DNA from: Escherichia phage P13771
DNA: 61,566 nucleotides
Direction: 5' to 3' (one strand)
Sequence record: HG792104
Shown here: positions 1 to 6,000 of the stretch, piece by piece
Position numbering within the stretch: position 1 is the first letter of the stretch
Layout: each line of letters begins with the position of its first letter
Position numbers: made by a program

Positions 1-3000
1 GTTTCAACATGTCTAAGGATATGGTTTATCATTTTGAAAAATATAATTTTATTTCATCCTCCTGGTCACTTTGGGGCACGTCTGGGGCACGGGCATTAAG
101 GACATTATTCAACATGGCAACTTGAGTCACGCTGCACTCAGGCATCCATGCACCATAAACATTGTAGACCATGCTGGCGCTGGAGTGCCCCATCTGTGAC
201 GCAATAAATGTCGGGTTTGCTCCGGCAGATAAAGCCCAGCACGCATAGGTATGGCGTGACTGATACGCTTTACGGGATCGGATACCCGCTCTTTTTATTG
301 CTGAATCCCATGTCGCTCCGATGGAGCTTACCGCGTAGTTAATACCCGCCTTGTGATTCTTGCGAACGATTTGCGGACAGAAAACAAAAGTGCACTCGTG
401 CAAAATTGTTCTTCCGTACTCGCGTAATTTAACAGTGATCTGATGCTGCCTGCCAAGACGAGTAAGCATCGCCTGGTTTTTAAGTGCTTCAATTGCTGGT
501 GCCAGAAGATGTATAACCCGGTTAGTGCCTGCGTCAGTCTTTGGTAGCGTAAAATCACCTATTTTTGTAAAATTTCTTCGCACTGTTATCGTGCCAGCTT
601 TCAGGTCGATATCCTCCCATGCAAGTGCGGCAATTTCACCGTGTCGCATCCCTGTAAAAACAGCCACTGTCCAGAGGTTTTTGGTCTGTTGATGATGGCA
701 GGCATCAATGAGACGGCTAAACTCATCTCTGGTCAGTGGATCCGGCACTGGTTTTGATTTCCTCAGCGGTGTTATTGAATTAAACGGGTTTTTCTCCAGA
801 TACCCGTTTTCGGCGGCAAAGCTGAACATTCCGGCTGTTGTTGTCATGTAATAGTTCACTGTGGGTACGGTTCTTCCTTTTCGGGACGTGCTGGTTTTCC
901 TGCTTCCCTTTTCCCCGGTCAGTAAATCTTTCCTGATAAACAGCAGATCTTCTTTTGTAATCGATGACGCCAGCCTGCCAGGACCAAGCCTCGGTAGCAT
1001 ATTTTTCATCACTGATTGATAACGATTTAAGGCGTTACTACTGATTTCCATTGCTTTCAGAGTAAGCCATTTCTGTGCCAGTTCACCGACGGTGATATCT
1101 TTTTTTACCAGGCCAAATAGCTTCAGGTTAGGTGAGTCAGGGAATCGCTCGGCATAATCAAACGTTCCCGTTCTGATTGCAAAGCAGACAGAAGCCCTTA
1201 ACTCACCAGCGATCTTTCTGTTTTTCGGAGTATCGGGCACGCGAAGATTTTCGCGCACTCGTTTACCCCTGTACTTAAACGTTATTCGGAGTTTTCCTCC
1301 GTGATTTTCAACGCCGGCTGGATAGGCTGAATTCGCCATTGTTCCTCCTGCGTCCAAGAGCACGCTCAGGTTATACTCTTATGGACAAGAATTAAACATC
1401 CTGAGATGGTAAGGGTTGGTTTTTGATCCAAGTGTTGATGGTAGGAAGATGATAGAGACATTCGCTGTTTTTCTTTGGCGTTCCGTCGGGGGCAATTTGT
1501 TTATATTCTCTGCCGTTCATCCACGCACTGTCCCTGGCGCGTAATATTGTTCCTTTTCTTAGGCCTGTTATAGCCATTAAAAGCTCCAGTGTTACCCATT
1601 CATTCGCATTTATCTGTACAACAGGTGTGATGACTGGCTGAATGCCATGGTTATGTTGGTTTACTAACTCGCGCATAAGTTGCCTCTGCATGTGTAAGAA
1701 AAAACCGCCCGAAGGCGGTTGTCAGTTGATTGATGTACGGCGCATTTTTCGAAGGCTGGCAATATGCTTTTCCTTCTCAATTTCCGCTTTAATCATATGC
1801 AGTTCGTTGTGCTCGATTCGCTCAAATTCTTCATTAAATGCACCAATTGAAGTGGCTCTGGTTCTGCCGTCGAGCCTTCGGTAGATCACCTGAGTCAGAG
1901 TTACCTTGCATATTTCTACCGGATAGTTGTTGGCATCAACGAAAGACTGCCCGCGCTGGATCAGGACGAACACTGGTTGTATTCCTTGAGTGCCATATCA
2001 TAAACACGGCATGCCGAGAGGTGTGTGTAGTCAACGTCGTTCGTATCCTGAAAAGTCCATGTGTTGTGACGGTAACTTCCGGGGCTTTGAGTTTCACTGC
2101 ATCAACGATATGCTGATGTTTGCGGCTTTCGAATATAGAGCTGGATATAACCACACTTGCTGTTAAACCGTAACTTTCAAATGTGATTTTCATGTCATTA
2201 TCCTCGCAGTTAGCCGGGCAACAAAAATAAATAATGTTGTTCCTGCGAATAACAGGATACCGCCCGTCATTAGAGAAAGGAAAAACAATATTAATGTACG
2301 CGGGGTGTTTCTCAAAATATTCTCTCTGTGATTCGCTCACTCTGACAATTCGTTGATCAAGTCACGGTATTTATTCAGTTCTTGCAACGCCTTACATGCA
2401 CCCTCCCATCGTTTCTGTTTCCGCCCGGCGCGGCGCGCTTCTTTCCGTGATTTACGTAGCAGGTCGCCTATAATGTTGTGCTGCACTGGCTGCACTGGCT
2501 GCACTGGCTGCACTGGCTGCACTGAGGCGATATTTGGTTTTTTGTCCACTTCCCTTGCAACTGCCTGCCAGATGCCATTTTTTACAGTTACTACCCCCTG
2601 GTTTTTTAACTTCCATAGAGTGTCAATAACGTCATTCAAATCAATATTGAGACCTTTAGAAATACTTTCGGCTGATGCTTTTCCTAATTTGTTCAATTCT
2701 GTGAGCACTGCGTTCATTTTTTTCTCCTGATATTTTAATGTCGGTGGGGCTGTTATACGGTTGGTGAGGTGTCAGCTTCTTCTACCAGCTTTTCCAGTTC
2801 ATCCAGCTTTCGGGAAAGAATTTCACCAAACAGATGAAGTTCTGCATCTGCTGTAATCGGGATTGGAACAAATCGTATTCCACTTCTGGCAAGTTGATTT
2901 GCGATTTCCAGACACTGCCTTAATTCAACTGGTGATGCCTTTGTCAACGTCGTTTTTTCGCTCATTGGTTTTCTCCAGAAATTTAACAATACCCGGAACC

Positions 3001-6000
3001 ATCTCAATGGATGGTGTGCCGCATTGGTTACCCCATACATCAAATCCATGCGAGGTGTGGCGGGCGAACAGTTCTATCCGGGGAACATCGCCAAGAAGTT
3101 GCACAAGTTTTTCTCGAGCCATATCCGGCTTGCGGGAGTGATCAAGGCGTGGTGCAGTGAATGACTGGATTATTCCGGCGTTAATGCGTTCGGGCAGATT
3201 TCCTTTCACTGCAAAAAGGCAGTCTTCGCTGTTAGCGCGAGTGGTGCTACCCATACCCATGACCAGCTTGTCGGTCTGTCTTTTCCCGCATTTGTTCCAG
3301 GTTAATCCTTTCATCGTCACCAGACGAAAGCCCCACGCTTCTACAACCTTCAATGCTTCAAGTGGTTGTGTAGGCACCCACCACATAGCCAACAGGCAAT
3401 TCTCGGCTGCCAGTTCCCATACCGGGAGGCGGCAGATATCCAGAAGACTCATGACCGGATATTTAAAACTTGCACCGCGTTGACCATCGGTTGCTTTGTC
3501 GCGGAATGTCCAGGGGGGATCTGCGTAAATGAGGGTGTATTTTTTCGTCATAGCGCGTTTTCAAACTCATCAATGTAAAGTCCTGCTTTAATCAGTCGGC
3601 GACGGCGTTCGGCCTTTTGCACGTATTCCTCGCGACAGTTTTTTGCTGCGTGTTCACGGCTTCTGCGACTGAATGGAGGAACGGCATTGCGTGAGCGAGG
3701 TGTGTCACGACGAGGATTTGATTCGAGGGAGAAAAAGCGATCAACGATTCCGGTGTCTGTGGTGAATGGTTCTGAAGCCTTTATTTTCACAACCTTACTG
3801 CCCTTTGTCAGGCCGCGAGCTACCTTGTTGAACTCGCAAAGTGAAACACCAAATTTCTCTGCTATTTCACTGCCAGTAACAGGACGACCACGAGACTGAA
3901 TCATCCAAGTGACGCGTTCTTTTAACCCACGGAAGGCACCGGGCCTTCCAGAACGCCTGTAGAAAGCGATCTGTTTCAAATTTTTGTCTCCAGATATGAA
4001 AACCCCGACGGGATGTCGGGGATGGTAGGGGAAGTTACAGGCTTAACGAGAAGCCTTTTCGGGAATTTCGATCTGACAATCTTGAAATATCCTGTAGCGT
4101 GCGGCGCATTTCTTCCGTCAGATGCTTGAAGGCGTTAAATTCAGCGACAGCGGCGTCAACGTTATAGCCTTTGCTGTGTAGCTCATTGAGGATGCGCATA
4201 GTTGGGCTTGGCATGTCGAAGAGCACAGAAACGTCCAGGTTAAGAGTTTTTCGATCAACATAGCTCATCATGGAGTAGGGGTGGTGCTCTGAAAACCACG
4301 ATAGAGGGTAGTTGATGTTCATTGGTGCAGGTAAAAGGCTCTGGCGAAGTTTCTTTTCGCACTCGATGAAGTATCGGCGGATCTGGCGGCCTTTTTCGTT
4401 ACGCTCAACCATCGCCAGTTCTTTGGCTGTGTCGAGGGTGAGGTGGTAATCCTTGCGGCGGCGGCCTGGAGTTTTCGCCAAATTTGGCGAAAATAGAATG
4501 TAGTCTAAATTTTCTACGAATCCATACTCGTTTAGCCTGGCCCGTATCCAGTTAGAAAAATCTTTACCTACCTCTAAAAATCCATGCAAATCACGCGCGT
4601 TCACCAGAAGCGTAGGTTCATTTGAGATTGTACCTTCAAACACAGGGATGAGTTGAGTGGTCATGATGACCTCCTTTGGCTTTTTTCGAGAAATGCCACC
4701 ACAAAATGTGGTGCCGGGAGGCTCGAAACGGCCCAAAAGATACCGCGGACTTATTCCCCTTGCGGGTGTTGTATTCGTCGCCCTCCCGACATTGATCGGG
4801 GATGTGACCGCACACTGTGCTATCACTGAATAACAGGCATAAAAAATCCAACACTGACGGGGTTGGTTTAATCCGCTTTTGGGAGGTTTTCGAGGCCTCG
4901 GCGCGGAGTATAGTCAGTATTGGACGCAGTCGTCAACCATCGCAAGCTCTTTGGCTGTGTCGAGGGTGAGGTGGTATTCCTTGCGGTTGTGACCGCCTCT
5001 ACCTTTTGCTTGCCAATTTTGGCAAGCAATAACAAAATCTTGATTTTCAACGAATCCATATTCAGCAATGCGCTCTTTAACCCAGTGCGCGAACATTCTG
5101 CCCACACCAAGAAAAGAGTGTAGCTCACGAGCGTTAACTAGAAGAATTGTTTCGTTGTCGATAGTGCCGTTGAATACGGGGATGAGTTGACTGGTCATGA
5201 TGACCTCCTTTGAAGTTTTAGTTAGCAATCACCAGTTAGTGGCTGGTGATCGGGTGTCAACTAGAGCCTTCAAAGATGCTCCGGGCATATTCCCCTTGCG
5301 GGTATTGTATTACGCCTCTCCACCCGACCTTTGTACGGATGTGACTATGCCAAATTGCAGGCATAAAAAAGCCGCAAAGCTATCGGGTGCGGATGACCGC
5401 TTTGAAGTTCTAGTGCGGTCAGTATGCGATAGCTCTGGCGGATTTGTCAAATCATGTAGGCCTTATCTTGCTGTAAGCCGCGCCATTCGGGCTTTTCCCC
5501 AGATTTGGGGGAAACTATCTGCGAAGTATTCACCTTTGACGGCAAGTTGCAGGTTAGCCACGGTTAACCTCCTGCGGCGGTTCTGGTAGCGGCATCCAGT
5601 GTGTTACCTGCTCAACACCATTGCCCGGCTTAATCGTTGCTTCTCCTCGCCGAAAGGTGCTTCCGGTATAGCGTGCGGAGCATATTAGCGGCTCAACCAG
5701 ATCACTATCGAAATTCACCGAAATAAGTACGTTCTGATTCTTTTTCGGCATTCGCTCACTACAGCTTATCCAACTATCCGGAGTTACCGGATAGTTGCCC
5801 GATAGTGCATTCTGCTCCAGTGATGCTTTTACAAACCACGCTGCCTGAACTATAACGCCATGAATCCAGCGCAAATCAGCATCGCGATCTTTCTTTTTCA
5901 TCTTTTCGCCACTTAAGGCCTTGCTTATGTGGCTGCGTACCAGGTCTTCATGTAATTCCTTCGCCTCCTCAATGGTGAAACCACCAGGCAGAAGAGCCGG

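Follow-up and report, generated by a model that had tools for sequence, protein, structure and literature searches.

What is the function of an adenine methyltransferase gene that lies near the integrase of a Shiga toxin (Stx) phage with no nuclease beside it, and why is it joined to the gene for a small basic protein? The question is raised by a two-gene locus of Escherichia phage P13771 (sequence record HG792104). The window, that is, the whole stretch of DNA that was analysed, has 61,566 nucleotides (nt). A first-pass annotation of this sequence had described an orphan MT-A70 methyltransferase coupled to a basic protein with a segment like a helix-turn-helix (HTH), and it missed that a near-identical pair had been studied experimentally. 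The pair is already known and was characterised in 2023, and the present analysis adds no new entity. We are almost certain that it is the gp6-gp5 module of phiPA8-type Stx2a phages. The published model, in which the two proteins act together on ribosomal RNA (rRNA), is in our view the best explanation of the pair, with a probability of about 0.5. Its parts differ in strength. The pair is very likely a heterodimeric adenine methyltransferase, and the chances that 16S rRNA is its main physiological substrate are roughly even.

The identity of the pair was established by direct comparison. The upstream protein is identical to phiPA8 gp6, named PNB-2, at 143 of 143 residues. The methyltransferase is identical to phiPA8 gp5 (M.EcoPA8orf6770P = M.ECPA8_3172P) at 207 of 208 residues, with E50 here and D50 there. 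Over 1.4 kb, terminator included, the DNA is 99% identical to that of phiPA8. The lengths of the proteins, the gene order, the ATGA overlap between the genes, the upstream terminator and the downstream DUF1382 and DUF1627 genes are the same in the two phages. The phages themselves differ: phiPA8 is another Stx2a phage and carries an IS629 element, whereas the window phage is of the type found at wrbA and carries a PstI-type restriction-modification (R-M) pair. The PNB-1 protein of phiPA8 and the antirepressor encoded upstream of the pair in the window have only their C-terminal part of about 100 amino acids (aa) in common. A second known enzyme is M.EcoGV of E. coli O104:H4 C227-11, which is described in the text of the phiPA8 paper as highly similar to the phiPA8 enzyme (PMC10810198). 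The 1055-bp DNA of the window pair is 100% identical to that of a Stx2a prophage at wrbA in E. coli O104:H4, so the window enzyme is probably M.EcoGV itself.

The function of the phiPA8 pair was studied by Gong, Chakraborty and Koudelka (Nucleic Acids Research, 2023; PMC10810198). An IS629 insertion in gp5 of phage phiPA2 was reported to cause less spontaneous induction and less killing of amoebae, and this defect was complemented by wild-type gp5 and not by a DPPW-to-APPA mutant. The gp5 protein alone had near-background activity on RNA and DNA, dam- DNA included. His-PNB-2 pulled down gp5, the two proteins cross-linked at a ratio of 1:1, and PNB-2 altered the activity and specificity of the enzyme in vitro. 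The use of S-adenosylmethionine (SAM) by the holoenzyme was >13-fold higher with total RNA than with DNA, and 16S rRNA was preferred over 23S rRNA, above all within 30S subunits. The rRNA from phiPA8 lysogens was a poorer substrate than that from phiPA2 lysogens (PMC10810198), which would be expected if its sites were already modified. According to a preprint (10.1101/2023.09.20.558713), deletion of either gene lowered induction and Stx-dependent killing; the single deletions had partial phenotypes and the double deletion had a stronger one. The nanopore signal differed at positions 832, 1098, 1100, 1132 and 1190 of 16S rRNA, and it was proposed that the enzyme protects the ribosome from Stx (10.1101/2023.09.20.558713).

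On this model, the pair would be transcribed with the leftward early operon when RNA polymerase reads through the terminator. It would reportedly also be transcribed from a stationary-phase promoter in lysogens, for which the phiPA8 authors cite unpublished evidence (PMC10810198). PNB-2 would be translated first and ribosomes would restart on the methyltransferase gene, which would favour co-production of both subunits. PNB-2 and gp5 would form a 1:1 holoenzyme, in which PNB-2 would supply nucleic-acid binding and substrate preference. The enzyme would write N6-methyladenosine (m6A) on the small-subunit (16S) rRNA of the host, translation would be sustained, and induction and the output of phage and toxin would increase. 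The first-pass annotation had suggested that the enzyme alters gene expression. This is loosely right insofar as higher induction and Stx-mediated killing are reported. Its other suggestion, that the enzyme could protect injected DNA from host restriction, is only partly supported: the preferred substrate in the published work is 16S rRNA in 30S subunits and not phage DNA, and the phenotype reported there does not concern restriction.

The methyltransferase of the window matches the Pfam family MT-A70 (PF05063; E=1.3e-22, 81 bits vs a cut-off of 23.9), with residues 5-176 covering positions 1-172 of the 172-position profile. PF05063 was its only match among the Pfam families considered, and neither PF05869, D12 (PF02086) nor N6_N4 (PF01555) was matched. 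An NCBIfam search returned no match for this protein or for PNB-2. The PHROG profile phrog_359 'DNA methyltransferase' (E=2.8e-117) and the PADLOC profile MTase_II (E=8.8e-86) were also matched. The window enzyme covers only positions 118-324 of the 329 positions of phrog_359. Longer homologues were considered as possible fusions with PNB-2 and were ruled out, and their extra parts are C-terminal extensions or read-through N-termini. Near the N-terminus, residues 9-14 read Y-A-D-P-P-W, with the catalytic DPPW at D11-P12-P13-W14, where motif IV is expected in the permuted order of the beta class. We looked for an inactive catalytic motif by closer alignment; the DPPW is intact, conserved among 27 relatives and aligned with the DPPW of Tetrahymena MTA1. 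In the C-terminal, SAM-binding part, the alignment of relatives shows little or no variation at R158-I-E-L-F-A-R164 and W173-G-N-Q176, and the ELFAR segment aligns with MTA1. Judged by its sequence, gp5 is an N6-adenine methyltransferase of the MT-A70 family with an intact catalytic motif, and the coordinates, family and motif given for it in the first-pass annotation were confirmed.

The closest solved structures by sequence are those of Tetrahymena MTA1/AMT1 (PDB 7f4r, 7yi8), found at E=1.9e-12 with the single sequence as query and at 1.5e-16 with a profile built from a 27-sequence alignment of methyltransferase relatives. The match to METTL3 is weaker (E=1e-4 and 6e-9, respectively), and PDB 7cv6, deposited as 'Methyltransferase-like protein 2', gave E=3e-5 and 3e-7. 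This ranking departs from the statement of the phiPA8 authors, who named METTL3/METTL14 as the closest homologues (PMC10810198). The AlphaFold2 model of the methyltransferase from a 27-sequence alignment was poor (mean pLDDT 46), and we relied on the sequence and profile searches of the PDB instead.

The partner protein is strongly basic (pI 10.75; 32 K+R vs 16 D+E) and matches phrog_1680 end to end. Its NCBI name is 'regulator'. The AlphaFold2 model has a mean pLDDT of 71, and the blocks that span residues 21-90 average 79-90. In this model, helices at 19-30, 36-43 and 47-54 are followed by strands between 66 and 85, which form a beta wing, and by a long C-terminal helix. The top Foldseek matches were the winged-helix proteins TFE-alpha, MarR and ArsR, with weak E-values (8e-3 and above). 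The Pfam HTH_11 profile scored 17.7 bits, under its cut-off of 25, and the PADLOC and PDB sequence searches gave no match. According to the predicted fold, PNB-2 is a winged-helix protein, which fits the basic protein with an HTH-like segment noticed earlier. The gene begins with TTG in 28/28 Stx-type copies, and ATG stands at the same position in 84/84 non-Stx homologues. The 25 residues 5' of the first ATG are conserved family-wide, including invariant Y7, R8, R9, G11, G14, F16, G18, E21, R22 and W25. The conserved N-terminus and the shared start position therefore support the TTG start.

The arrangement of the two genes suggests how they are expressed together (Table 1). The PNB-2 stop and the methyltransferase start share ATGA, and this overlap is kept in 28/28 Stx-type copies. 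The GGAGA context of PNB-2 was found in 27/28 of them. No canonical Shine-Dalgarno sequence was found within ~12 nt 5' of the methyltransferase ATG. With the ATGA overlap and no Shine-Dalgarno sequence of its own, the methyltransferase is probably translated by ribosomes that restart after PNB-2, and the translational coupling proposed in the first-pass annotation agrees with this. The terminator upstream of PNB-2 is identical to the one described in phiPA8 between gp7 and gp6. No sigma-70-like promoter was found between this terminator and PNB-2. The promoter-like matches in the region numbered 8, vs 5.0 +/- 2.0 in shuffled sequence, and thus were not in excess. The Rfam scan gave no RNA family inside 2925..3979. 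Open reading frames (ORFs) on the + strand opposite the pair were regarded as mechanical, as no support was found for them.

Table 1. Features of the two-gene locus and of the rest of the window mentioned in the text
Feature	Position	Strand	Basis or remark
DUF1627 gene, 126 aa	2337..2717	-	Pfam and PHROG matches; downstream, same operon
DUF1382 gene, 70 aa	2753..2965	-	Pfam PF07131, E=3.9e-28; ATG at 2965
MT-A70 methyltransferase gene (gp5), 208 aa	2925..3551	-	ORF; downstream of PNB-2
Catalytic motif IV codons, D-P-P-W (residues 11-14)	3510..3521	-	read from the sequence
ATGA overlap of PNB-2 TGA stop and methyltransferase ATG start	3548..3551	-	sequence
PNB-2 (gp6) gene, 143 aa, TTG start	3548..3979	-	ORF; putative non-catalytic nucleic-acid-binding subunit
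GGAGA ribosome-binding site	3987..3991	-	sequence; 7 nt 5' of the PNB-2 TTG
Intrinsic terminator CCCCGAC-ATCCC-GTCGGGG with T run	4003..4021	-	terminator scan; between antirepressor gene and PNB-2
PstI/BsuBI-type nuclease of R-M pair	15156..16109		pair spans 15156..17575
Methylase of R-M pair	16106..17575		adjoins the PstI/BsuBI-type nuclease
cI-like repressor	17670..18383		
C-terminal remnant of N6/N4-type (Dam-like) methylase	23953..24105	+	between Q and stx2A
tRNA-Met, tRNA-Arg(tcg), tRNA-Arg(tct)	24146..24397	+	after the methylase remnant, before stx2A
stx2A	24488..25447	+	

The first-pass annotation stated that the enzyme has no cognate nuclease. Searches with Pfam, PHROG and PADLOC found no nuclease within ~2.5 kb of the methyltransferase and no match to a defence-system nuclease. 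The neighbours are the genes for an AntA antirepressor, DUF1382, DUF1627 and DUF4222 proteins, excisionase and integrase. As no cognate nuclease adjoins it, the methylase is an orphan and does not qualify as part of a Type II R-M system. The other two methylation functions named in that annotation, the methylase of the R-M pair and the methylase remnant, were both found (Table 1).

The methyltransferase is widespread, and 1255 homologues were found. The best 120 are 60-100% identical to it and come from Salmonella, Klebsiella, Enterobacter, Serratia, Pantoea, Pectobacterium, Yersinia and other hosts. Copies that stand alone, 73-79% identical, are located either between the replication and antiterminator genes (nin-like region) or behind the lysis genes. 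Some MT-A70 relatives of 264-274 aa (P0099, P0170, P0174) have a C-terminal extension with a CPRCG...H-x-C motif like a zinc ribbon; judging by this motif, the extension could be a built-in nucleic-acid-binding module that replaces a separate partner. In Klebsiella prophages (L116-L118), a stand-alone MT-A70 that is 78% identical lies just downstream of the gene for a 261-aa HTH_ParB protein and adjoins an RloB/AAA_21 (OLD-like) pair on the opposite strand. The HTH_ParB protein is a possible different DNA-binding partner for the stand-alone Klebsiella enzyme.

Among 5426 complete E. coli genomes, the methyltransferase sequence was found in 258, always on the chromosome, and the contiguous pair in 132 (~51%). 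This proportion refers to all matches, vs the published value of >83%, which refers to full-length copies (PMC10810198), and the denominators differ. In another class of E. coli genomes, the methyltransferase is kept with only ~30 bp upstream. In E. coli O157:H7 TW14359, which belongs to this class, the last 21 codons of a PNB-2-like gene are left upstream of the methyltransferase (3627..3689 of that locus). Where the match in an O157:H7 genome is shorter, the copy is probably disrupted, as in phiPA2. In the published work, the enzyme is described as confined to bacteria that carry Stx prophages, with a truncated isoform elsewhere (PMC10810198; 10.1101/2023.09.20.558713).

The PNB-2 family is small, with 63 representative clusters among 1.84 billion proteins, all of which are small proteins or fragments. 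No fusion of PNB-2 with a methylase was found in these 63 representatives or among the methyltransferase homologues. The family is not confined to Stx phages: at 50-60% identity, it has members in prophages of the lambdoid and P22-like kinds from E. coli, Klebsiella, Enterobacter, Raoultella and Yokenella. Gene context was recorded for 84 non-Stx PNB-2 loci (from L006-L034 and L060-L114), which have 68 distinct arrangements of the seven downstream genes. In the loci inspected, the non-Stx homologue sits after recombination genes. An MT-A70 gene comes next in 32 loci; in 22 it is the gene of a DUF1317-like protein of 50 aa, in 17 that of a protein of 55 aa, and in 5 that of a PF05869 Dam. All the non-Stx homologues overlap this next gene by 4 nt, whatever it is. 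Modification genes were found in 64 of the 68 arrangements and comprise MT-A70, PF05869 Dam, C5, N6_N4, D12 and phrog_757 methylases, a DpdA-like transglycosylase and DndB. MT-A70 was present in 37 arrangements, PF05869 Dam in 15, both in none and neither in 16 (Fisher p=7e-7, not corrected for relatedness). As read from gene order, this alternation in the same slot is the pattern expected if two unrelated enzymes fill one role. The MT-A70 proteins of these islets have only 39-45% identity with the window enzyme, so the Stx pair looks mosaic, with PNB-2 joined to a mostly stand-alone MT-A70 subfamily. The correlation between PNB-2 clade and downstream gene was not used as evidence of interaction, as it is inseparable from simple linkage.

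The ends of the islet genes were also recorded. Of the 545 islet ORFs, 159 end in ...AA*, and they represent at least 16 protein clusters unrelated to one another. The commonest terminal sequence, GAGGC(A/C)GCATGA, combines a Shine-Dalgarno-like GAGG with the ATGA overlap. It could be a conserved cassette junction and a possible recombination linker. The end of the window methyltransferase gene differs from this type.

Several points weigh against 16S rRNA as the substrate of the pair. The assignment was made with a SAM-consumption assay, and the modified base was not chemically identified (PMC10810198). In the main text of that paper, the holoenzyme was tried with dam+ MG1655::phiPA2 DNA, in which GATC is already methylated, and dam- DNA is reported for gp5 alone only. 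The nanopore comparison was between lysogen and non-lysogen and not with a gp5 mutant, and the PNB-2 deletion was checked for downstream transcription only (10.1101/2023.09.20.558713). As no Shine-Dalgarno sequence precedes the methyltransferase gene itself, its translation may drop in the PNB-2 deletion, and this may confound that phenotype. The sequence is closer to the ciliate enzyme MTA1/AMT1, which makes N6-methyladenine in DNA (6mA), than to METTL3. M.EcoGV, assayed without PNB-2 according to the text of PMC10810198, is reported there, citing Fang et al. 2012, to methylate GATC in DNA when over-produced, and it is listed as an orphan type II m6A enzyme for GATC; in the O111 methylome (PMC6602927), its homologues on Stx2 prophages are given as GATC enzymes. 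Relatives 73-79% identical stand alone, with no PNB-2 within 3 kb, and PNB-2 homologues precede DNA-modification genes of many kinds. These caveats on the substrate do not overturn the direct biochemical data.

The same points lend some weight to a possible, though rather doubtful, explanation, namely that the pair works chiefly on DNA, as a Dam-like adenine methyltransferase cassette that probably targets GATC and is one of many interchangeable cassettes in the early-left region of lambdoid phages. Methylation of replicating phage DNA, and of host DNA, would then protect progeny from restriction or tune DNA-based regulation, PNB-2 would be a DNA-binding partner or a regulator of the islet, and the in vitro activity on rRNA would be secondary. 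The GATC methylation reported for M.EcoGV, from an O104:H4 Stx2 phage in which the DNA of the pair is identical, and its REBASE-type annotation agree with this, as do the kinship to a DNA 6mA enzyme and the use of Dam-methylated DNA with the holoenzyme in the main text of PMC10810198. At least one DNA-modification gene is present in 64/68 non-Stx arrangements, MT-A70 and PF05869 Dam never occur together and share the same slot and the same following neighbours, and the other Dam-type methylase of the phage is reduced to a remnant. Against this, purified gp5 was near background on dam- DNA, the holoenzyme had its >13-fold preference for RNA, and rRNA of phiPA8 lysogens was the less active one compared with phiPA2 lysogens (PMC10810198). 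The GATC result came from over-production, which can give off-target methylation (PMC10810198). The genomic context is guilt by association in a mosaic region, where the MT-A70 proteins behind other PNB-2 homologues are only distant relatives of the window enzyme. A broader conjecture, which we consider unlikely, is that PNB-2-family genes are the constant first member of a DNA-modification islet in the early-left operon of lambdoid prophages whose other genes shuffle, and that their products are a shared adaptor or regulator for exchangeable MT-A70, PF05869 Dam, C5 methylase, DpdA-like and DndB cassettes. The Stx enzyme would then act mainly or also on DNA, the published model with rRNA only would give just part of the picture, and the pair would represent a bacterial precursor of the eukaryotic MT-A70 writers with separate binding subunits, used on both DNA and RNA.

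Whether the two proteins work together at all is a separate matter. PNB-2 might be an independent DNA-binding regulator of the early operon, with the coupling left by tight packing or mosaic history and the methyltransferase working alone. The uniform 4-nt overlap of PNB-2 homologues with any next gene (84 non-Stx loci) would suit this, and a distant member of the family lies in a phage early region where no methylase gene was called nearby. Close methyltransferase relatives occur without PNB-2, about half of the complete E. coli genomes with the methyltransferase have no contiguous PNB-2 (132/258 have both), and no fusion of the two was seen in the 63 family representatives or the 1255 methyltransferase homologues. 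We nevertheless regard such independence as quite improbable in view of the pull-down, the 1:1 cross-link and the effect of PNB-2 on activity and specificity (PMC10810198), and of the partial single and stronger double deletion phenotypes (10.1101/2023.09.20.558713). In addition, MT-A70 directly follows PNB-2 in 29/29 Stx-type loci and in 32/34 loci of one non-Stx clade. The methyltransferase gene could finally be a decaying, non-functional passenger. Copies disrupted by IS629 or partial (31-38% query cover) occur in many O157:H7 genomes, phiPA2 has such a disruption, and the enzyme is reported in the text of PMC10810198 to be weakly expressed in O104:H4. However, the window ORF is intact with no frameshift, all motifs are conserved, and the gene is 99-100% conserved across many Stx phages. 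As the wild type complements and the APPA mutant does not (PMC10810198), this explanation is effectively refuted and deserves hardly any credence.

We therefore retain the model of a heterodimer acting on rRNA, at the probability given above, and the known systems place it as follows. Tetrahymena MTA1 is an MT-A70 catalytic subunit that depends on separate small DNA-binding subunits. In the MTA1/AMT1 complex (MTA1c: MTA1, MTA9, p1 and p2), which makes 6mA in DNA, the DPPW and an ELFAR-type motif align with the window enzyme. MTA1c is eukaryotic and has four subunits, including an inactive MT-A70 paralogue and homeobox-like partners, whereas the window pair has a winged helix; no second, paralogous MT-A70 is present at the window pair. 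The messenger RNA (mRNA) m6A writer METTL3-METTL14 has the same MT-A70 fold and the DPPW and is an obligate heterodimer. Its partner subunit is a degenerate MT-A70 paralogue, in contrast to the winged-helix partner here, and it is the more distant match. Phage Dam-type orphans (PF05869; M.EcoVT2Dam of Stx phages) are likewise orphan phage adenine methylases. In other lambdoid prophages, PF05869 Dam fills the place that MT-A70 has behind PNB-2 homologues, and the two are never found together; the Dam-type orphans belong to another protein family than the window enzyme.

The genes around the pair have features of their own. The DUF1382 gene is the next in the operon and shares 41 nt with the 3' end of the methyltransferase gene; RefSeq has a 213-nt version of it, and GGAG precedes its ATG. 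The DUF1627 protein matches a winged helix (TrmB-like) weakly at its N-terminus and contains a PVQ repeat, which is encoded by a perfect 9-bp tandem repeat in five copies at 2480..2524. The length of this gene among near-identical phages is 354 nt in P14437, 381 nt here and 390 nt in Ss-VASD, so the number of repeat copies appears to vary. Upstream of the pair, the antirepressor-like protein (4035..4826, - strand) is mosaic: over the last 103 aa at its C-terminus it has 93% identity to phiPA8 PNB-1 (gp7), and its N-terminal AntA domain is unrelated to the N-terminus of PNB-1. A second, truncated ORF of 104 aa with an AntA domain lies at 4914..5228 (- strand). In the identical prophage of O104:H4, RefSeq marks this truncated ORF and the neighbouring DUF551 pieces (5554..6450, - strand) as pseudogenes. 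Two matches to Rfam RF02221 (sRNA-Xcc1) were found at 4705..4790 and 5240..5329, both on the - strand, and their scores of 74.5 and 65.4 bits exceed the gathering score (53). One lies immediately 5' of each of the two AntA antirepressor ORFs, which probably start near 4664 and 5198, and the position resembles that of a conserved 5' leader.

The window as a whole is a Stx2a-converting lambdoid phage. Its closest matches are Stx and Oslovirus phages at 98.5-99.9% identity, and from the integrase onward its gene order is collinear with phage P14437. The integration site, taken from the counterpart prophage of O104:H4 in RefSeq, is wrbA. Only a remnant of the N6/N4-type methylase survives between Q and stx2A, so a Dam-type methylase that is present upstream of stx in related Stx phages has been lost here. 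GATC occurs 172 times in the window vs 242 +/- 14 expected from shuffles (~29% depleted), and CTGCAG, the site of the phage's own PstI-type R-M pair, is mildly under-represented (10 vs 17 +/- 3.8); neither count discriminates between the explanations.

What the pair means depends on its substrate. If the rRNA claim is true, the module would be the first prophage-encoded rRNA methyltransferase. If DNA is the substrate, it would rank among the common orphan methylases of phages, though its separate subunit for DNA binding would be unusual. Three findings are grounds to re-examine the substrate: the DNA of the control was dam+, a DNA 6mA enzyme is the closer relative, and MT-A70 alternates with Dam in one slot. 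The present analysis also draws attention to translational coupling as a possible confounder of the PNB-2 deletion phenotype. The module is carried by many Stx2a phages, including that of the 2011 O104:H4 outbreak strain, and through its reported effect on induction and toxin it bears on the virulence of E. coli strains that produce Shiga toxin (STEC).

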